Assembly: GCA_964653875.1 (NCBI GenBank)
Contig: CAZZGH010000002.1
Coordinates: 1 to 41,668, forward strand
Direction: 5' to 3'
DNA: 41,668 nt
Origin: an uncultured Candidatus Saccharibacteria bacterium
GTDB lineage: Bacteria; Patescibacteriota; Minisyncoccia; 2-02-FULL-40-12; GWA2-44-9
In this document: piece after piece, positions 3,168 through 32,210 of the stretch
How the letters are laid out: the number at the start of each line of letters is the position of its first letter
How positions within the stretch are numbered: position 1 is the first letter of the stretch
Notes under the pieces: model-generated
Database searches by the model: none
Seen by the model: only the letters and a program-made list of their open reading frames with translations
Told to the model about the DNA's origin: nothing
Position numbers and translations under genes: made by a program

Positions 3168-3638
3168 ATGATAATCATCGGCATTGATCCGGGTACTACA
3201 CAAATTGGTTTTGGGATAATAAAGAATGAAGGCAACCGTTTTGAGTCTTTGGGCTACGGAATAATTAAAAATTCCGGCAAAGATAAATTATCAGATTACG
3301 AAAGCACCTCCAAAGAACTGTCAAAACTAATTACTAAATTTAAACCTGAAATTTCCGTGGTGGAAAAACTTTTCTTTTTTAAAAATCAAAAAACCATCAT
3401 GTCGGTCGGGGAAATGAGGGGAGTTATAATGCTTACTCTTGCCAATCACGGCCTGCCAGTTCTTGAATTCACCCCAATACAAGTGAAACAAGCGATATCG
3501 GGCTATGGCGGGGCCGACAAGAGCCAAGTCCAAAGAATGGTTCGCTTGATTTTGGGCATTAAAAAAGAGATAAAGCCTGATGACGCCGCCGATGCGCTGG
3601 CTATTGCAATTTGCGGAGTAAATAATAAAATTGGGTAA
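3168..3638 (+). CDS. ruvC: Holliday junction resolvase RuvC
   Basis: N-terminal IIGIDPGT catalytic Asp motif and C-terminal DAADALAIAIC. 156 aa. Confidence 0.9.
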   Translation: MIIIGIDPGTTQIGFGIIKNEGNRFESLGYGIIKNSGKDKLSDYESTSKELSKLITKFKPEISVVEKLFFFKNQKTIMSVGEMRGVIMLTLANHGLPVLEFTPIQVKQAISGYGGADKSQVQRMVRLILGIKKEIKPDDAADALAIAICGVNNKIG

Positions 3639-3718
3639 AGTTTTAATAGATATCTTATTTGTATTGTCTGGCAACTCTTAAGTGGCCAGTCAATAAAAAC
3701 AAGGTAAACAAGGCCAGC

Positions 3719-3877
3719 ATGGCAATAAACGAAATGGTGGATCCGCTATACATTTTGAAAGCGGACGAAGCAGAAGAAGGAAAAAATGACGATACCGATG
3801 ATGTTGATGATTTAGATGAAGATGAAGACGATGAAAAGGAAGATGATGAGGAAGACGAAAAAGAAACAAATTGGTAA
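3719..3877 (+). CDS. Small, extremely acidic hypothetical protein (52 aa from the ATG; the ORF track starts at TTG 3659)
   Basis: MAINEMVDPLYILKADEAEEGKNDDTDDVDDLDEDEDDEKEDDEEDEKETNW. An AAGG lies 5 nt upstream of the ATG. A hairpin terminator follows. Confidence 0.4.
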   Translation: MAINEMVDPLYILKADEAEEGKNDDTDDVDDLDEDEDDEKEDDEEDEKETNW

Positions 3878-3884
3878 TTAAATA

Positions 3885-3908
3885 AAAATACCGCGGGAGC
3901 GGTATTTT
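3885..3908. terminator. Bidirectional intrinsic terminator between the acidic ORF and tyrS
   Basis: aaaataccgc-ggga-gcggtatttt: a 10-bp stem with A/T runs on both sides. Confidence 0.7.
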
Positions 3909-5062
3909 TATTTATCTATTATTTTTTCTATCTCTATTTCTACCCCCTTGCCCACTTTAACAATATCACCCTTTTTGATTTTGAAATTCCAATCCTTCAC
4001 AGTTTCACCATTTACTTCAACAGCTCCTTGATTTACAAGCTCTTTCGCCGCAGAATTAGAAGGGGCTAAACCAGCCATCACGGTAGTAGAAATTATAGTA
4101 ATGCCCCCTAGGGTCTTTCTGGGTTTATGTGCCTCGCCGACCGCCCTTTTCCCATGGTATATTCGGACTAATTCATCCGCCAATTCTTCTTTCCACTCCC
4201 GAGGGTTCTTATCTTTATTCTGTTCAATCCAGCCCAAAGACTTTTCTGTGCAAAGTTCAAACAATGTTTTTATTATTGAGTCGTCAACCATAAGTATTTT
4301 TCTTCTGATCTCTTGGGGGGTGTCGGATAAAGCAATAATTTCTCCTTCCGACTTGCTCATTTTCTTGCCAGATGAACCCACTAAAAGTTTAGTAGCAAAT
4401 ACCATTTTATCCTTCCCAAGATATTTTCTCTCCAACTCTCTCCCGACTAACATATTAAAGGTCTGGTCATTGCCGCCCACCTCCCCATCTACTCTCATGG
4501 CCACTGAATCATAACCCTGCATTAAAGGGTACAAAAATTCGTGGACACCAATCGGCTTTTCATTCTTTATCCTTTCCTGAAACATATCCCGCACAATCAT
4601 CTTCTGAACCGTAACATGGCTTGCCAATTTTATAACATCTTCAAAGCTCATCTTAGCCAACCAGGAGTTGTTGTACTTAATTTTAAACAAATTTTTAGGG
4701 ACAATTTTGGAAACTTGTCCTAAATAGGTTTTCATATTTAAACTTACTTCTTCTGATGTCAGCGGTCTGCGAGTAGTATCCTTGCCAGTGGGATCCCCTA
4801 TCCGGGCAGTGAAGTCGCCTATCAGCAAAATAATCTCATGCCCCAGTTCGGCAAGTCTTTTTATAAAAAGAAGTTGCACCGTATGCCCCAAATGGATATC
4901 GGGTCCGGTCGGATCTACTCCATAATAAATTCTGAGCTTCTCACCTCTTCCCATTCTTTCTTCCACCTCTTGTCGCGAAGGATAAAGGGTTTCAGTGTGT
5001 CTATCCAGAATTTCCTTTATTAAGCCCTTGCCGGTAATAATTTTAGGTCGGATTCCAAACAT
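3908..5062 (-). CDS. tyrS: Tyrosyl-tRNA synthetase with C-terminal S4-like domain
   Basis: Class I HIGH variant HLGH, KMSKS, GGNDQTFNM, and a C-terminal S4-like AAKELVNQGAVEVNGE. ATG at 5062 is preferred over the TTG at 5071 used in the ORF track. Confidence 0.85.
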   Translation of the reverse strand: MFGIRPKIITGKGLIKEILDRHTETLYPSRQEVEERMGRGEKLRIYYGVDPTGPDIHLGHTVQLLFIKRLAELGHEIILLIGDFTARIGDPTGKDTTRRPLTSEEVSLNMKTYLGQVSKIVPKNLFKIKYNNSWLAKMSFEDVIKLASHVTVQKMIVRDMFQERIKNEKPIGVHEFLYPLMQGYDSVAMRVDGEVGGNDQTFNMLVGRELERKYLGKDKMVFATKLLVGSSGKKMSKSEGEIIALSDTPQEIRRKILMVDDSIIKTLFELCTEKSLGWIEQNKDKNPREWKEELADELVRIYHGKRAVGEAHKPRKTLGGITIISTTVMAGLAPSNSAAKELVNQGAVEVNGETVKDWNFKIKKGDIVKVGKGVEIEIEKIIDK

Positions 5063-27553: not shown

Positions 27554-27657
27554 GAATTTTGTGGTCACAAGTATTTTTCCTGACGGAAAAATCTCGCGAC
27601 CCCGGCTCGCGGTTTTTGCCTTTCGCTATCGCTCAAACAAAAACATCGCTCCGCCTT

Positions 27658-27705
27658 CCACAAGAGCTAAAAATCTCAAGCAGTTGAGGTTTTAAGCTCT
27701 TGTGG
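27658..27705 (-). terminator. Long hairpin immediately after tRNA-Ala copy 1
   Basis: ccacaagagct ... agctcttgtgg, with inner stem ctcaa-gcag-ttgag. It overlaps the last 3 nt of the tRNA. Confidence 0.5.
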
Positions 27706-27773
27706 ACCCGGGGAGAATCGAACTCCCGCCTCGACAATGCGAATGTTGCGTTATGCCACTTAACTACGGGCTC
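27703..27773 (-). tRNA. tRNA-Ala(CGC), copy 1, no encoded CCA, with two A-C mismatches
   Basis: Hand-folded cloverleaf. Acceptor gagcccg/cgggtcc with G3:U70. D stem gtta/taac. Anticodon loop ttCGCat. T arm gggag-ttcgatt-ctccc. A2:C71 mismatch plus one A-C in the anticodon stem. Confidence 0.75.
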
Positions 27774-28154
27774 TTATCTAACTTTTTTTATTTCACCAAA
27801 CGGGTGCGGTAATTCTCTGGCTTCAATGAGATCTTCCACGTGTTTTTGCCAAAGTTTTAATTTAGCTTCCATGTTTTCTCTGGCAACATTGTTTTGTGAA
27901 TGAATTCTAATCTCTGCTCGGAACAACTCAGGATGTTTTTCTGACATCCATTTCATGATTTCCAAACCCTCAGTTAGTTCTCCACTATTTTCACCCAAGT
28001 CATTATCAAGACTTAGGGCATCAATTCTTTCTCCAGATTTGCTGGCCTCGTCTATAAGAGACTTAAATTCTTCAAAATTAATCGCTACTCGCCAACCATC
28101 GGGTATCCAATTTTTCCGCTCGTTATGAGCTTGATCGTCTAAAAATATTTTCAT
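27774..28154 (-). CDS. Cyclic-phosphate-processing receiver (cREC)-like domain protein
   Basis: MKIFLDD...DGW...IDALSLDNDLGE...EGLEIMKWM...IRIHSQNNVARENM matches my recollection of the family pattern (LDD, GW, SLDHDLG, HS.NP..R..M). The internal ATG was chosen because the ORF-track N-terminus runs through a tRNA gene. Confidence 0.65.
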   Translation of the reverse strand: MKIFLDDQAHNERKNWIPDGWRVAINFEEFKSLIDEASKSGERIDALSLDNDLGENSGELTEGLEIMKWMSEKHPELFRAEIRIHSQNNVARENMEAKLKLWQKHVEDLIEARELPHPFGEIKKVR

Positions 28155-28190
28155 AGGTTTTTTATCAGTTAATCCTCGGTAAATCAAATT

Positions 28191-28264
28191 TGGTGGACCC
28201 GGCGGTAATCGAAACCGCGTCCCGGCAATGCGAATGCCGTATATTACCACTATACGACGGGCCC
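28191..28264 (-). tRNA. tRNA-Ala(CGC), copy 2, CCA encoded
   Basis: Acceptor gggcccg/cgggtcc with G3:U70. Perfect anticodon stem cggca/tgccg. Anticodon loop ttCGCat. T arm gcggt-ttcgatt-accgc. 3' ACCA. Confidence 0.85.
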
Positions 28265-28267
28265 AAT

Positions 28268-29152
28268 TTAAATTAATCTACTCAAAATTTTATCTAATTG
28301 ATTATTTGGATACAAGTCTTTAGGATAAATTCCAATAAGTTTTATCTTATTTTTGCGGCAGAGTTTAATTTTTTCTTTTACAGCCCTATCGTATCTTGGG
28401 CTATCTTTTGCAAGACCAAAGTATTCGACAAATATTTTACCATTTTTTATGGACCAATCGGCCTTGTGGTCGGTAGTCGGGTATTTTGTGTCACGGTTAT
28501 GGGGGATACCGCGCTTGGTTAGCCAGTTGTCGACTATGGCTTCAGAGATTGAATCACAGACATGGCCATCATTAGCTTTGGTTTTCATACGGCGATACAT
28601 GCGGTGGTCATGAGAACGATGTGGCGTAAAATTAGCGGCGATTATCGCGTTGTTCCATGAGCCAAATTGGTGGATAGCTTTATGTGATATTTCCATTATT
28701 TCTCTTTTGGCAGGAACTCGTTTGTTCTTGCCATAGTGATTCTTAATAATAGAAATTATCTGTTCTTTAGAATACTTAGGAACATGAGAATAATGAAAGC
28801 TTGACCACCCGCACTTACTTGAACAATATTTAGATTCCCTGTTCTTAAACTCCTTACCACAAACCTTGCAATATCTTTTGGGCCATTTTGGATATCTTTG
28901 ATTATTTACAATCGCAGCACAGGATTTAGAGCAGTAGTTAGACGCAGAAATGTTGCCTGGTGCTCTGTAGAATTTTTTGCCGCACTCATGGTTCTCGCAA
29001 AGTATAATACTGCCTCGTATTTTGGATTTGTAATGACATTTTTTAGAGCAAAATGAATGATAGCCAGCATTTTTGTTAAAAATAAAATAAGCTCTCTTCG
29101 TCAGGAATTGTTTGCGGCAAAAATAACATCGGATTTTTACCCTTGATAACAC
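28268..29152 (-). CDS. Triple zinc-ribbon protein with a homing-endonuclease-associated repeat and a C-terminal PD-(D/E)XK (Vsr/DUF559-like) nuclease-like domain
   Basis: Three CxxC...FCSxxC units. FGSWNNAIIAANF repeat motif. The C-terminus DSISEAIVDNWL...ADWSIKNGKIFVEYFG...KIKL...KLIGIY resembles a restriction-endonuclease fold. GTG start. Confidence 0.5.
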   Translation of the reverse strand: MLSRVKIRCYFCRKQFLTKRAYFIFNKNAGYHSFCSKKCHYKSKIRGSIILCENHECGKKFYRAPGNISASNYCSKSCAAIVNNQRYPKWPKRYCKVCGKEFKNRESKYCSSKCGWSSFHYSHVPKYSKEQIISIIKNHYGKNKRVPAKREIMEISHKAIHQFGSWNNAIIAANFTPHRSHDHRMYRRMKTKANDGHVCDSISEAIVDNWLTKRGIPHNRDTKYPTTDHKADWSIKNGKIFVEYFGLAKDSPRYDRAVKEKIKLCRKNKIKLIGIYPKDLYPNNQLDKILSRLI

Positions 29153-29158
29153 CCTTTA

Positions 29159-29164
29159 ATTATA
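29159..29164 (-). promoter_or_regulatory. -10 box TATAAT, 6 nt upstream of the GTG start of the zinc-ribbon ORF
   Basis: Minus strand reads gaTATAATtaaaggGTG. Confidence 0.35.
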
Positions 29165-29221
29165 TCAAAGTTTAAGTCGAGCTACAAGGATTTGAATCTC
29201 GGATTCTTTCGCACCATTTTG

Positions 29222-29293
29222 TCAGGCTGGAGGGAGTCGGACCCTCTTTCTCTATCGCCCGAGGATAGCGTGTTACCGTTACACTACAGCCTG
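29222..29293 (-). tRNA. tRNA-Pro(CGG), no encoded CCA, unusual T-loop
   Basis: Acceptor caggctg/cagcctg (C1:G72, typical of bacterial tRNA-Pro). D arm gtgt-aacggta-acac. Anticodon loop ctCGGgc with G37. T arm gaggg-tccgact-ccctc. Confidence 0.8.
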
Positions 29294-29297
29294 GAAT

Positions 29298-30731
29298 TTA
29301 TACATAATATTTCTTCATCCTCTCCTTCTCTTCTTCCTCAATGGCTTTTTCTATTGTCTCCAACGATTTTCTTAATTCTTCCGGTGTTTTTTTATCCAAT
29401 TCATGAATTCTTTTTTCCAGATATTCTTTGGTGTTTTTATTTGGGTCGTCAATTACTTCAGCCAAAAGATAATTCAAGATTAATCCGATTTTTGGCCCTG
29501 GTTTTATATCAAGTTCCTTCATAATATCTTCTCCTCCAATTTTGAGCATTTTTACGGAGATAGGATCGCTGGAGACCTTGTCTATAATATACTGAAGATG
29601 GCGTAATTTATAGGGAACAGCCTTTGGTCTGCCCGAACCTATTCTGTCCGCTTCGCGGACCTTTATCAAGTCTTCAATATTTTCTAAGCTAATCTTTGTC
29701 AACAACCTTCTTACCGAGGACTCCGTTACCTCTTCGGGATTATAGTAGAACATATGGTAGCGGACCAGTTTTATTATTTTTTCAGCCTGATCTTTTGGGA
29801 ATTTTAGCCGAGACATTATTTCTGCAACCATTTTTGCCCCGATAACCTCATGGCCGTAGAATGTTGAATTCCGGCCCGCTCCCCTTTTAGATTTTGGTTT
29901 ACCTATGTCATGAAACAATGATGCCAAACGCACATCCAAAGAATAGTTTTTTTCTGCCGAATATTTTAGTGCCTTGACGAGATGTTCCCAAACGGTATAA
30001 ATATGGTGCAAGTTTTGTTCAACTCCAACTCCTTCTAATAATTCAGGAATAATATGTTTAAGCAACCCTGTTTCTTGGAGACGGATAACCCCGTCGTAGG
30101 CATTGTCGGAATTAATAATTTTTACAAATTCGTCCCGGATTCTCTCTTTGGAAATAGCTACCAGCCAGGCAGAGTTTTTGTTTATTGCTTCAAGTGTTTC
30201 CTTTTCTATTTTAAAACCAAGGAGCGTTGCAAATCTTATGGCTCTTAATAGTCGGAGGGCATCCTCATTAAATCTTTCTTCGGGCTTACCTACTGTCCTT
30301 ATTGTTTTGGATTTTAAGTCTTTCTGGCCGTTGAATAAGTCTATAATTTCTCCATTTATGTCCATTGCCAACGCATTTACCGTAAAATCACGCCGTGACA
30401 AGTCATCTTCAAGTTTGTCGGCGAATTTAACAGAATCTGGATGGCGTTTGTCCGTATATTTACCCTCAATACGGTATGGTGTGACCTCGACAAGAGCAAG
30501 TTCAGGTTTTTCTGAATTCGTTTTAACTGCTACTGTGCCGAATGTATTTTCATAGACATGTTCGGGGAATAATTTTTGTATTTTTTCGGGCTTGGCGTTT
30601 GTAGTGACATCCCAATCTTTCGGTTCTTTGCCCAATAACAAATCACGGACACAGCCTCCTACTGTATATCCTTCAAGTCCTGCGCTATTTAATTTTTTTA
30701 TAATCTCCCGTATTTCTTTTGGAAGTTGCAT
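29298..30731 (-). CDS. cca: CCA-adding tRNA nucleotidyltransferase with HD domain
   Basis: GGCVRDLLLG and DWDV polymerase-beta motifs. HD motif LFHDIGKP. 477 aa. Confidence 0.85.
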   Translation of the reverse strand: MQLPKEIREIIKKLNSAGLEGYTVGGCVRDLLLGKEPKDWDVTTNAKPEKIQKLFPEHVYENTFGTVAVKTNSEKPELALVEVTPYRIEGKYTDKRHPDSVKFADKLEDDLSRRDFTVNALAMDINGEIIDLFNGQKDLKSKTIRTVGKPEERFNEDALRLLRAIRFATLLGFKIEKETLEAINKNSAWLVAISKERIRDEFVKIINSDNAYDGVIRLQETGLLKHIIPELLEGVGVEQNLHHIYTVWEHLVKALKYSAEKNYSLDVRLASLFHDIGKPKSKRGAGRNSTFYGHEVIGAKMVAEIMSRLKFPKDQAEKIIKLVRYHMFYYNPEEVTESSVRRLLTKISLENIEDLIKVREADRIGSGRPKAVPYKLRHLQYIIDKVSSDPISVKMLKIGGEDIMKELDIKPGPKIGLILNYLLAEVIDDPNKNTKEYLEKRIHELDKKTPEELRKSLETIEKAIEEEEKERMKKYYV

Positions 30732-30743
30732 GTTTTCTTATGA

Positions 30744-30817
30744 TGCCCCGGGCAGGATTTGAACCTGCAGTCTTCCCCTTAGGACGGGGCTGCTTAATCC
30801 AATTAAGCTACCGGGGC
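30744..30817 (-). tRNA. tRNA-Arg(CCT), no encoded CCA
   Basis: Acceptor gccccgg/ccggggc. D arm gctt-aattggatt-aagc. Anticodon loop gtCCTaa. T arm gcagg-ttcaaat-cctgc. Confidence 0.85.
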
Positions 30818-31435
30818 GTTAATTTCTTTTGAAATACCGACAATCAAAGACCTAACTACTTTAAACAAATAGCCACTTTTCCTAACCGCAACTCTGCACA
30901 TTCCAAATTCAGTCCTACCCCTCTTGCCACCATCGTTATAATACATGTTAATTTGTTTTTTAGGAACTTTTGTTATTTTTGACCAGTGTCTTAAACACTT
31001 GTCTCGATTCATCCCGGTAAAATACCTGACAGTTATTAGTAGTTGGCCCTTGTCTACACGAAAACATTTTTTTAGTATGCCGATAAATATACTTATCATT
31101 TCTGCATTAGTATTGACGAAAGAAAAAGCATTTTTATTATCTCCTTCAGCCCAGTAAAGCATCGCTAAAAGACTTACTAAATATTTGTTGTTGCTGTTGA
31201 GAAGTATTCTTGCTTCATCTTTTGCTTTAATTAAATCTCGTTCTTTTTTTAACCTACTCCCGCCTTGATTGGCCTTTAATTTTAAGATATACTTTTTCCG
31301 TAACTTAATAGTGTGTATGTGATGCCATACTGTACTTTTTGGCATTGAGAGTATCTTAACCAGCTCCTCAATACTGTGACCTTCTTTTCGTAGCTGCTTT
31401 AGCTGCTCTACTTTTTCTAAAGAATGGACATGCAT
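30803..31435 (-). CDS. HTH plus LAGLIDADG-type homing-endonuclease-like protein
   Basis: N-terminal HTH-like HSIEELVKILSMPKSTVWHHI. LAGLIDADG-like motif LLAMLYWAEGD. The last 15 nt overlap the 5' end of tRNA-Arg. Confidence 0.6.
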   Translation of the reverse strand: MHVHSLEKVEQLKQLRKEGHSIEELVKILSMPKSTVWHHIHTIKLRKKYILKLKANQGGSRLKKERDLIKAKDEARILLNSNNKYLVSLLAMLYWAEGDNKNAFSFVNTNAEMISIFIGILKKCFRVDKGQLLITVRYFTGMNRDKCLRHWSKITKVPKKQINMYYNDGGKRGRTEFGMCRVAVRKSGYLFKVVRSLIVGISKEINAPVA

Positions 31436-31504
31436 AATACATTCAGTATATAATTTTAATTAGAACAAGTAAATAGCTCCTTGTTTATAGATTGAGGTTC
31501 AAAT

Positions 31505-31580
31505 GGGCCGTTAGCTCAGCTGGTAGAGCGTTTCTATGGCATAGAAAAGGTCACCGGTTCAAATCCGGTACGGTCCACCA
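31505..31580 (+). tRNA. tRNA-Ala(GGC), CCA encoded
   Basis: Acceptor gggccgt/acggtcc with G3:U70. Anticodon loop atGGCat. T arm accgg-ttcaaat-ccggt. Confidence 0.9.
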
Positions 31581-31614
31581 AATCTAAAAACGACCCTCGG
31601 GTCGTTTTTAGATT
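31581..31614. terminator. Bidirectional intrinsic terminator (perfect palindrome)
   Basis: aatctaaaaacgaccc-tc-gggtcgtttttagatt. It serves tRNA-Ala(GGC) on the + strand and the gatA-downstream gene on the - strand. Confidence 0.75.
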
Positions 31615-32210
31615 GCCTGGAGTTCTTTTAATGTTTTTTCATAGAGACCGACCGCTCTTTTGGCTTCAGTATAGCGCAGGAAATAATTGGTATCATGAAC
31701 TAGACGATTTCTTATTTTGTGGGCCTCCCAGAGACCCTGCAAGGTTGTTAATTGGCCCGGTTGGATGTTCATCAATCTGTCCCCCATTGTATCTCCCGGA
31801 AAGCCGGAATTTTTTAATAAATCATCAGCCATTTTATCCGCTTCAATTACGGCAAACTTCCATTCGGCTTCGCGGGTAGAATTAATATGCTTTTCGATTT
31901 CAACCCAACGGGCATTAAGTCCTGATGTAGCAGGCGAAGGTGGCATGATTGTTTTTACTAAGTTTATTTTTACGGCCGCTAATCTGTTTATTTTTATTAT
32001 CACTATAACCAATAAGATTCCAAGCAGCACGCTTGCTACTGTAAGGATTAATTTCACGATATTCCAGATTTCATCCGCTCCAAAACCGGGCAAATATTCC
32101 AAAGCTTGGGCTATGGTAATATTTCCGACCCTAAGATCGTATACTTGATATAAATTATCGAGGGTGCTTTGTATTGTGTTGTTATCGTAGAAAGGCATTT
32201 TTAGGTTCAA
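31608..32210 (-). CDS. Single-pass membrane protein of unknown function with an Rx4H-containing C-terminal domain
   Basis: TM segment IVKLILTVASVLLGILLVIVII. C-terminal AHKIRNRLVHD. 4-nt overlap with the gatA stop. Confidence 0.55.
   Translation of the reverse strand: MNLKMPFYDNNTIQSTLDNLYQVYDLRVGNITIAQALEYLPGFGADEIWNIVKLILTVASVLLGILLVIVIIKINRLAAVKINLVKTIMPPSPATSGLNARWVEIEKHINSTREAEWKFAVIEADKMADDLLKNSGFPGDTMGDRLMNIQPGQLTTLQGLWEAHKIRNRLVHDTNYFLRYTEAKRAVGLYEKTLKELQAI

Follow-up and report, generated by a model that had tools for sequence, protein, structure and literature searches.

The 41,668-nucleotide stretch of DNA analysed here (the window) represents contig 2 in the genome of an ultra-small groundwater bacterium (805 kb in 101 contigs, 40% GC, 92% complete), and its minus strand carries a cluster in which four protein-coding genes alternate with four tRNA genes, most of them only a few nucleotides (nt) apart. 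The cluster is probably a mixed tRNA-protein unit of two layers, in which a conserved operon of cca, the gene for the CCA-adding tRNA nucleotidyltransferase, and its flanking tRNA genes has received recent, lineage-specific inserts, namely two genes resembling free-standing homing endonucleases and a rare gene for a cyclic-phosphate-processing receiver domain (cREC). With the same degree of confidence, the junctions at which these genes end 0–4 nt from a tRNA or overlap it are ascribed to a tendency of this lineage to pack genes against the 5′ ends of tRNAs, and not to a purpose-built punctuation of the transcript.

The conserved layer is seen most clearly in cca and its neighbours. The encoded protein has the domain set of class II CCA-adding enzymes (PF01743, PolyA_pol, 6e-39; PF12627, PolyA_pol_RNAbd, 5e-21), with further Pfam matches to PF01966 (HD, 6.5e-12) and PF13735 (tRNA_NucTran2_2, 1e-10). 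The gene was searched for in 40 relatives and 80 named genome contigs and ARAGORN was then run on the loci (relatives are labelled G001 and so on and loci L006 and so on; the present genome is G000). The order tRNA-Arg(CCT)-cca-tRNA-Pro(CGG), often followed by tRNA-Ala(CGC), was found in about 100 Paceibacteria loci with tRNA-Ala(GGC) on the opposite strand, including records labelled Yanofsky-, Nealson-, Azam-, Wolfe-, and Giovannonibacteria. A same-strand tRNA-Pro(CGG) follows cca in 30 relatives and in about 65 of the 80 named loci, at a gap of 0–7 nt in 19 of them, and tRNA-Arg(CCT) lies 3–13 nt ahead of cca in about 35 of the 80. One extra gene stands between cca and tRNA-Pro in about 10 of the 80 named loci and, where examined, it is dut overlapping cca; in G011, G015, and G018 (loci L006, L007, and L008) the dUTPase gene likewise overlaps the end of cca ahead of tRNA-Pro(CGG). 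The presence of dut at this place in some relatives indicates mixed operons, in which the tRNA-bounded unit can hold other housekeeping genes.

A conserved sigma-70-type promoter (TTGAAA-17-TGnTAnnAT) is located 20–35 nt upstream of tRNA-Arg in nine relatives that have no open reading frame (ORF) upstream of this tRNA; the motif was sought in the 27–32 kb part of the window and was not found there. Because a gap of 3–13 nt is too small for a promoter, cca would share the transcript of tRNA-Arg, barring a promoter within the tRNA gene itself, and it almost certainly rides on a tRNA precursor transcript. This conserved sandwich without promoter space is the strongest support for co-transcription, and it applies to cca; for cca and, in other genomes, for cREC, the layout leaves no space for a separate promoter or leader and strongly implies that they are transcribed together with the tRNAs on either side.

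The first-pass annotation of this DNA had described the cluster as a tRNA-punctuated polycistron of mitochondrial type, and the geometry on which that description was founded proved accurate. The tRNA ends called by ARAGORN and checked with the Rfam tRNA covariance model (gathering score 29 bits) coincide with the 5′ ends claimed for the four minus-strand tRNAs, which score 51–60 bits, and the ORF listing and junction print-out reproduce all six claimed distances (−15, 12, 4, 3, 36, and 0 nt). The first of the four ORFs, of 210 codons (30803–31435), overlaps tRNA-Arg by 15 nt, so that its last four codons and TAA lie inside the tRNA; cca begins (ATG at 30731) 12 nt past tRNA-Arg and ends (29298) 4 nt ahead of tRNA-Pro; the 294-codon ORF ends (28268) 3 nt ahead of tRNA-Ala(CGC) copy 2; and cREC begins (ATG at 28154) 36 nt past copy 2 and ends (27774) 0 nt from tRNA-Ala(CGC) copy 1. 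The gaps from a tRNA to the following start codon are 12 nt for cca, 68 nt for the 294-codon ORF, and 36 nt for cREC, and are thus tight for cca only. All four ORFs end in complete TAA stops, that of the 210-codon ORF lying inside the tRNA. The mitochondrion-like layout is therefore real and non-random, and the reading built on it is supported in part, best for cca and, in other genomes, for cREC; a single polycistron, uniform by design, is not supported, since two of the four coding sequences are lineage-specific cassettes with promoter-like sites. An encoded CCA is, as had been reported, missing from three of the four minus-strand tRNAs and present only in tRNA-Ala copy 2; this does not set the cluster apart, since CCA is encoded in only 18 of the 47 tRNAs of the genome and its absence (29 of 47) is the norm.

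Of the two endonuclease-like inserts, the 210-residue protein is composed of an N-terminal helix-turn-helix (HTH) and one LAGLIDADG-type domain. The structural matches of its model (predicted local distance difference test score, 86) are led by I-DmoI (Z 6.9) and the endonuclease domain of the Tli VMA intein (Z 6.5), followed by WhiA (Z 6.4) and E-DreI (Z 6.2), all over residues 81–205; residues 1–44 match Hin/Tc3-type HTH domains. Alignment with nine paralogues and relatives reveals a LYWAEG motif and an invariant E97. Pfam returned nothing beyond weak HTH matches for this ORF, its sequence profile matched only HTH domains in the PDB, and a Foldseek search of the PDB with the model found nothing at E ≤ 0.001; the protein is assigned to the LAGLIDADG-type enzymes with moderate confidence.

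The slot of the 210-codon ORF is empty in same-genus loci (the spacer is complete in G001 and G003 alone), with tRNA-Ala(GGC) and tRNA-Arg 54 nt apart and no ORF between them. The closest relatives of the protein (61% and 55% identity) run into tRNA-Arg(CCT) in G032 and G030, which belong to two other families of the order, and distant members of the family (22–23%) are found in the same spacer of G018 and G019, facing tRNA-Ala(GGC). The tRNA-Arg allele itself resembles the alleles of endonuclease-bearing genomes (84% and 81%) more than same-genus ones (62–78%), an indirect hint, like the tRNA-Pro remnant described below, of copying into an endonuclease-free allele; the promoter-like TTTACT-17-TATACT ahead of the ORF occupies the place of the TTGAAA-17-TGnTAnnAT promoter of the endonuclease-free relatives. 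Elsewhere in the genome, a paralogue begins directly (0 nt) behind the 3′ end of tRNA-Glu(TTC) (L032, 970–1656; G000 contig 10, 15969–16655), and its message would be leaderless after tRNA 3′ processing.

The 294-residue protein has zinc ribbons (conserved CxxC pairs) and a DNA-binding HNH_repeat module (PF18780, 1e-7) together with a C-terminal nuclease domain of Vsr fold. In the AlphaFold model, residues 200–294 best match the catalytic domain of I-Bth0305I (3r3p_B; Z 10.9, root-mean-square deviation 2.8 Å over 91 residues) and secondly Vsr (Z 8.8). Orthologues with 53–62% identity directly follow tRNA-Pro(CGG) in G009, G017, G018, and G024, which represent four other genera, and the slot is empty in the four same-genus loci that cover it (G001, G002, G003, and G005), where tRNA-Pro and tRNA-Ala(CGC) are 12–15 nt apart with no insert. 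Immediately behind the functional tRNA-Pro(CGG) lies a degenerate 3′ remnant of a genus-type tRNA-Pro, which agrees with the T-arm region of the G003 tRNA-Pro at 21 of 27 positions and supplies the −35-like TTGTAG of the cassette; a comparable remnant precedes two of the orthologues (L010 and L014). The extended −10 element TGATATAAT stands so close to the GTG start that its position predicts a leaderless transcript for this ORF.

The tRNA-Pro(CGG) has an unusual T loop (TCCGACT), and in the anticodon and T stems it resembles the tRNA of G017, from another genus, at 94% and the same-genus copies at only 78%. Co-transfer of this tRNA-Pro allele with the 294-codon gene was considered and found ambiguous, the tRNA being 94% and the endonuclease 58% identical to those of G017. 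The same allele type also occurs in a genome without the gene and is not strictly tied to the endonuclease.

The third addition brings cREC together with a second tRNA-Ala(CGC). The 126-residue cREC protein matches PF20274 (2.4e-19; 70.2 bits against a cut-off of 27), a family for which a phosphoesterase activity on cyclic phosphates (RNA 2′,3′-cyclic phosphate or cyclic ADP-ribose), linked to RNA ligases, has been predicted (PMC7824862). It was found in two of the 41 relatives searched, this genome included, and in a 401-genome sample of the phylum only this genome exceeded the PF20274 cut-off, with one more hit below the threshold. In four of five other contexts (G011 and three metagenome contigs, the homologues on the latter being 58–65% identical) cREC is located between tRNA-Arg(TCT) and tRNA-Pro(TGG), always with its stop 4 nt ahead of the tRNA and with its ATG 1 nt (two cases), 20 nt, or 192 nt past tRNA-Arg; the fifth homologue has no tRNA flanks. 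In the present genome tRNA-Arg(TCT) and tRNA-Pro(TGG) are 14 nt apart with no cREC between them, the gene being found instead between two tRNA-Ala(CGC) alleles that have diverged. Copy 2, the type I allele of the genus, has perfect stems and G3:U70 and is the one that stands behind tRNA-Pro in three genomes of the same genus. The other, copy 1, is a type II allele as in G001 with two stem-breaking G-to-A changes (A2·C71 and A28·C42), and is possibly a decaying redundant copy. Since the same-genus spacers lack the inserts, the 210-codon ORF, the 294-codon ORF, and cREC with the second tRNA-Ala are additions.

Genes ending against tRNAs are not confined to this cluster. The survey of stop-to-tRNA distances that had been suggested for the whole genome bears out the tight spacing, as 12 of the 27 tRNAs preceded by an ORF on the same strand have the stop of that ORF at −15 to +5 nt. 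The tRNA-abutting ORFs include three paralogous groups, made up of seven HTH-LAGLIDADG-like ORFs, three with a Pfam LAGLIDADG_3 match plus one on contig 25, and three of zinc-ribbon/HNH type. In 11 of the 14 endonuclease-like ORFs the stop falls −15 to +37 nt from a tRNA 5′ end, and a further two begin immediately behind a tRNA; the adjacency to tRNA 5′ ends has a hypergeometric P of ∼1e-16, and all LAGLIDADG_3 and HNH_3 matches in the genome belong to such tRNA-linked ORFs. In the relatives, 10 of 16 readable free-standing LAGLIDADG_3 ORFs abut a tRNA 5′ end. Seven ORFs, in this genome and in relatives, take their stop codon from bases U8-A9-G10 of the tRNA (TAG), so that an overlap of 10 nt recurs, and other tRNA-abutting ORFs stop 0–6 nt upstream of the tRNA. 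NCBIfam gave no name for any of these ORFs, and a literature search found no publication describing this habit of endonuclease genes for cellular genomes. A second nest is present in L035 (G000 contig 18, 7550–10390), where three endonuclease-like ORFs are wedged ahead of tRNA-Leu, tRNA-Phe, and tRNA-Gly in an array of tRNA-Leu(GAG)-Val(GAC)-Phe-Gly(GCC); the relative L069 has only one.

Both the 210- and the 294-residue proteins thus carry a nuclease domain (less clearly in the former), are encoded outside introns and inteins between intact tRNAs, and occur sporadically at a fixed site, and they appear to be free-standing homing-endonuclease cassettes inserted in particular lineages. The tight abutment is accordingly better explained as a genome-wide property of selfish genes than as a design for operon processing.

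Signals for transcription and translation were also examined. No minus-strand terminator-like site was found between 31435 and 27702; the first such structures, which are strong, come after the cluster, a 48-nt hairpin (27705–27658, with an internal CUCAA..UUGAG-U5) and then a GC hairpin (CGCGAGCCGGGGUCGCG) with a T run behind it (27611–27595). Throughout, promoter-like sites are at chance level (26 found against 19.8 expected), and both endonuclease cassettes seem to carry promoters of their own. Many tRNA-abutting endonuclease-like ORFs begin 6–7 nt past an extended −10 element (TGnTAnnAT), and this element directly precedes the start of 9% of long ORFs against 0.9% of random positions, a ten-fold difference, while motifs resembling Shine-Dalgarno sites are barely enriched (8% of long-ORF starts against a background of 5%). 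This pattern of motifs suggests that leaderless or near-leaderless initiation is widespread in the genome, and starts so poor in Shine-Dalgarno sites and rich in extended −10 elements make near-leaderless mRNAs from tRNA 3′ processing plausible; a literature search on leaderless translation in Patescibacteria found nothing. RNase P RNA (122 bits) and a tmRNA gene are present. The RNase Z equivalog model gave only weak metallo-beta-lactamase hits below its cut-off, which in a genome of 92% completeness is not evidence of absence. One weak hit to this model, a 287-residue ORF of metallo-beta-lactamase fold, lies near tRNA-Pro(GGG) on G000 contig 42, where an unassigned 316-residue ORF ends 4 nt ahead of that tRNA (∼1900–2760 and 3507–4535).

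Features of the cca-tRNA cluster, in descending order of position
Feature	Position	Strand	Remarks
tRNA-Ala(GGC)	31505..31580	+	ARAGORN; Rfam 65.9 bits; divergent, bounds the unit; same position in relatives
Promoter-like TTTACT-17-TATACT	31445..31473	-	ends 9 nt before the ATG of the 210-codon ORF
Free-standing homing-endonuclease-like gene, 210 residues	30803..31435	-	N-terminal HTH and one LAGLIDADG-type domain
tRNA-Arg(CCT)	30744..30817	-	ARAGORN, Rfam; no encoded CCA; first gene of the conserved operon
cca	29298..30731	-	CCA-adding tRNA nucleotidyltransferase with HD domain; Pfam
tRNA-Pro(CGG)	29221..29293	-	ARAGORN, Rfam; no encoded CCA
Degenerate tRNA-Pro 3′ remnant, 45 nt	29176..29220	-	T arm and acceptor strand; right after functional tRNA-Pro(CGG)
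Extended −10 element TGATATAAT	29159..29167	-	ends 6 nt before the GTG (29152) of the 294-codon ORF
Free-standing homing-endonuclease-like gene, 294 residues	28268..29152	-	zinc ribbons, HNH_repeat module, C-terminal Vsr-fold nuclease
tRNA-Ala(CGC) copy 2	28191..28264	-	ARAGORN, Rfam; encoded CCA
cREC, 126 residues	27774..28154	-	cyclic-phosphate-processing receiver domain; rare accessory gene between two tRNAs
tRNA-Ala(CGC) copy 1	27702..27773	-	ARAGORN; Rfam 51.1 bits, lowest of five; no CCA
Terminator-like structures	27595..27705	-	first after the cluster; fold z-score −4.7

Under the two-layer explanation, the older layer would be an operon ancestral across Paceibacteria in the order promoter, tRNA-Arg(CCT), cca, tRNA-Pro(CGG), and tRNA-Ala(CGC). 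Cleavage by RNase P at tRNA-Pro would leave a cca message ending 0–7 nt past its stop, and maturation of the tRNA-Arg 3′ end would leave it a leader of 3–13 nt, which fits a genome that seldom uses Shine-Dalgarno sites; such a layout would couple production of the CCA-adding enzyme to tRNA synthesis. The younger layer would consist of the HTH-LAGLIDADG cassette ahead of tRNA-Arg and the zinc-ribbon/HNH-repeat/Vsr-fold cassette behind tRNA-Pro, with the rare cREC and the second, decaying tRNA-Ala(CGC) lodged likewise in the cluster. Each cassette can be pictured as a start-abutting promoter and an ORF that, without a terminator, runs up to or into the next tRNA, so that its insertion would interrupt the target site at the edge of the tRNA, and 3′-end formation would be left to the tRNA. 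Transcription would then proceed from two promoters, one ahead of each endonuclease ORF, with readthrough to past tRNA-Ala copy 1, and cleavage by RNase P would leave the cca, 294-codon, and cREC messages ending 4, 3, and 0 nt past their stops and would strip the 210-codon ORF of its stop codon. Once RNase P has separated it from leuU, the secG message of E. coli is gone within 30 s (PMC2241853). By analogy, processing here would probably limit expression of the upstream genes rather than mature their messages, plausibly for selfish endonucleases and as a possible throttle for cca.

If the cluster were instead punctuated by design in the manner of mitochondria, RNase P and a 3′ endonuclease would release all four coding sequences from one transcript running from ∼31445 to ∼27600, and leaderless translation of the freed mRNAs would be their chief route of expression. 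The absence of a terminator-like site between the genes, the gaps of 0–4 nt or overlaps at all four stop-tRNA junctions, the cREC homologues that begin 1–2 nt past a tRNA 3′ end, and the presence of RNase P RNA in a genome poor in Shine-Dalgarno sites and rich in apparently leaderless starts would all be expected on that account. It is nonetheless unlikely, because two of the four coding sequences are recent inserts absent from same-genus genomes, with promoter-like elements immediately ahead of where translation begins, the distances of 68 and 36 nt from tRNA to start codon are too loose, the stop codons are complete, and no RNase Z equivalog reached the family cut-off. The E. coli precedent also tells against it, as an upstream mRNA that is gone within 30 s of the cut would mean that processed forms are not the main templates (PMC2241853).

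That the spacers were merely shortened by deletion bias in a 0.8-Mb genome, each tRNA and coding sequence keeping its own promoter, in some cases within an adjacent gene, would suit the coding density of ∼85%, the many overlapping or abutting gene pairs in the window, and the occurrence of promoter-like sites throughout at chance level. Such plain compaction is very improbable, however, since the order and spacing of tRNA-Arg(CCT)-cca-tRNA-Pro(CGG) are kept across several candidate phyla of Paceibacteria and the single conserved promoter sits upstream of tRNA-Arg, and it would leave unexplained both the near-restriction of three unrelated nuclease families to tRNA 5′ ends (P ∼1e-16) and the recurrence of cREC between tRNAs. 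The tRNA-abutting ORFs might also be domesticated host factors, for example DNA-binding regulators of tRNA genes comparable to the LAGLIDADG-derived WhiA, which is among the structural matches (Z 6.4); the N-terminal HTH and the intact state of the ORFs, found in the same slot across genera at 53–62% identity, agree with such a role. Domestication is still improbable, if slightly less so than compaction, given that the genes are patchily present even inside one genus, that unrelated folds (LAGLIDADG, HNH, and Vsr-like) share the positional habit, that the acidic residue at the catalytic position is invariant, and that a tRNA remnant lies beside a cassette, as expected from repair after cleavage.

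Several points weigh against the two-layer explanation as well. The promoters, the co-transcription, and the cleavage sites are all predictions, and with promoter-like sites before both endonuclease ORFs the region may comprise at least two overlapping transcripts. An mRNA ending 0–4 nt past its stop may be a poor template, in which case translation would perhaps occur only before processing. Cutting of DNA by the 210- and 294-residue proteins is likewise predicted, and the LAGLIDADG assignment of the former is based on modest scores (Z 6.9, with no Pfam match). The identity of the cassettes to their orthologues (53–62%) is no higher than that of cca (65–74%), so that an ancient presence with repeated loss is inseparable from transfer. 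In addition, the genome is a 101-contig metagenome-assembled genome (MAG) in which some tRNA contigs are duplicated.

The tRNA-Arg(GCG) gene is present in three copies on G000 contigs 4, 39, and 91 with a different upstream ORF each time, two of these ORFs being endonuclease-like paralogues that are 46% identical, which suggests strain mixture or duplication in the MAG. The nearest named records are Candidatus Yanofskybacteria MAGs from groundwater, and the locus belongs to Candidatus Yanofskybacteria (Patescibacteria). Six DNA runs from two groundwater studies contain 64–91% of the sequence words of the stretch, and no RNA run was found to contain it. The cluster is flanked by housekeeping genes on the same strand, with ligA, gatC, gatA, and a 200-residue ORF upstream and a UvrD/PcrA helicase gene and KsgA downstream (Pfam); the 200-residue ORF (31608–32210, minus strand) overlaps the gatA stop and has no Pfam family. 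A prophage or integrase island was rejected because no integrase is present, housekeeping genes lie on both sides, and about 100 genomes conserve the cluster. An assembly artefact was also rejected, as relatives show the same synteny and runs from two studies contain the stretch.

A wider proposition can be offered only tentatively, as the less probable side of the question: that Paceibacteria routinely express protein genes off tRNA precursors, with near-leaderless mRNAs freed by tRNA 3′-end processing (cca 3–13 nt and cREC 1–2 nt past a tRNA), 3′ ends made by RNase P, and a preference for genes that service tRNA ends. Such a bacterial equivalent of mitochondrial punctuation would be exploited by selfish endonucleases both for their expression and to form their 3′ ends. 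If this were true, free-living-type bacteria with tiny genomes would use tRNA excision to form mRNA ends and near-leaderless messages, convergently with mitochondria, and a simple logic would couple the essential CCA-adding enzyme to tRNA output in a genome where 29 of 47 tRNAs lack an encoded CCA. The boundaries of tRNA genes appear to be a preferred niche of several unrelated homing-endonuclease families in bacteria of the candidate phyla radiation (CPR), and this niche can explain the fast turnover of tRNA alleles, remnants, and gene order around tRNAs. For annotation, it follows that ORFs running into tRNAs are real here and not artefacts, and the recurrence of cREC between tRNAs provides a lead for its predicted role on cyclic-phosphate RNA ends.

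In animal mitochondria, according to the Ojala model of tRNA punctuation, RNase P and RNase Z free the mRNAs from polycistronic transcripts. The present cluster is similar in that tRNAs flank coding sequences at 0 to a few nt and in that the predicted mRNAs would be near-leaderless and end at or near their stops. It differs in that stops are complete or borrowed from the tRNA instead of being finished by polyadenylation, some genes have apparent promoters of their own, only part of the genome is so arranged, and the processing is predicted. Among bacteria, the E. coli secG-leuU and tufB-type co-transcripts also place a protein gene and a tRNA on one transcript with a single RNase P cut (PMC2241853). 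The arrangement had been called unusual for bacteria, but mRNA-tRNA co-transcripts cut by RNase P are thus already known from secG-leuU (PMC2241853). In contrast to E. coli, where the secG-leuU spacer is 14 nt, the spacers here are −15 to +4 nt, a coding sequence also follows a tRNA at 3–13 nt, the embedded cca and cREC act on tRNA ends (the latter by prediction), and the arrangement is conserved across the whole class.

The nearest published case to the association of endonuclease genes with tRNAs is SegB of phages T4 and T6, one of several free-standing homing endonucleases encoded in phage tRNA clusters; it cleaves within tRNA genes and is passed on along with them (PMC2330249; PMC13096335). 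As in those phages, the endonuclease genes stand among tRNA genes and in neither introns nor inteins (PMC2330249; PMC13096335), but they occur in a cellular CPR genome, belong to LAGLIDADG, HNH, and Vsr-like families instead of GIY-YIG, and precisely abut or overlap the tRNA 5′ end, often with tRNA bases 8–10 as the stop. The 294-residue protein resembles I-Bth0305I and the EDxHD family (3r3p; the “fractured genes” of PMC2677866) in having a Vsr-like fold (91 of 98 residues align, with Z 10.9); I-Bth0305I, however, is intron-encoded in a phage gene, whereas the present gene is free-standing behind a tRNA, the identity is only 12%, and the N terminus has zinc ribbons and an HNH_repeat module. 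Similarly, the LAGLIDADG enzymes of rRNA introns and rRNA-operon spacers in CPR bacteria share the host group, the superfamily, and the setting in a stable-RNA operon (PMC8172020), while the genes described here lie beside tRNA genes and the 210-residue type has a single LAGLIDADG domain with an HTH. The arrangement is a variant that unites bacterial mRNA-tRNA co-transcripts with free-standing endonucleases in tRNA clusters, and not a new category.

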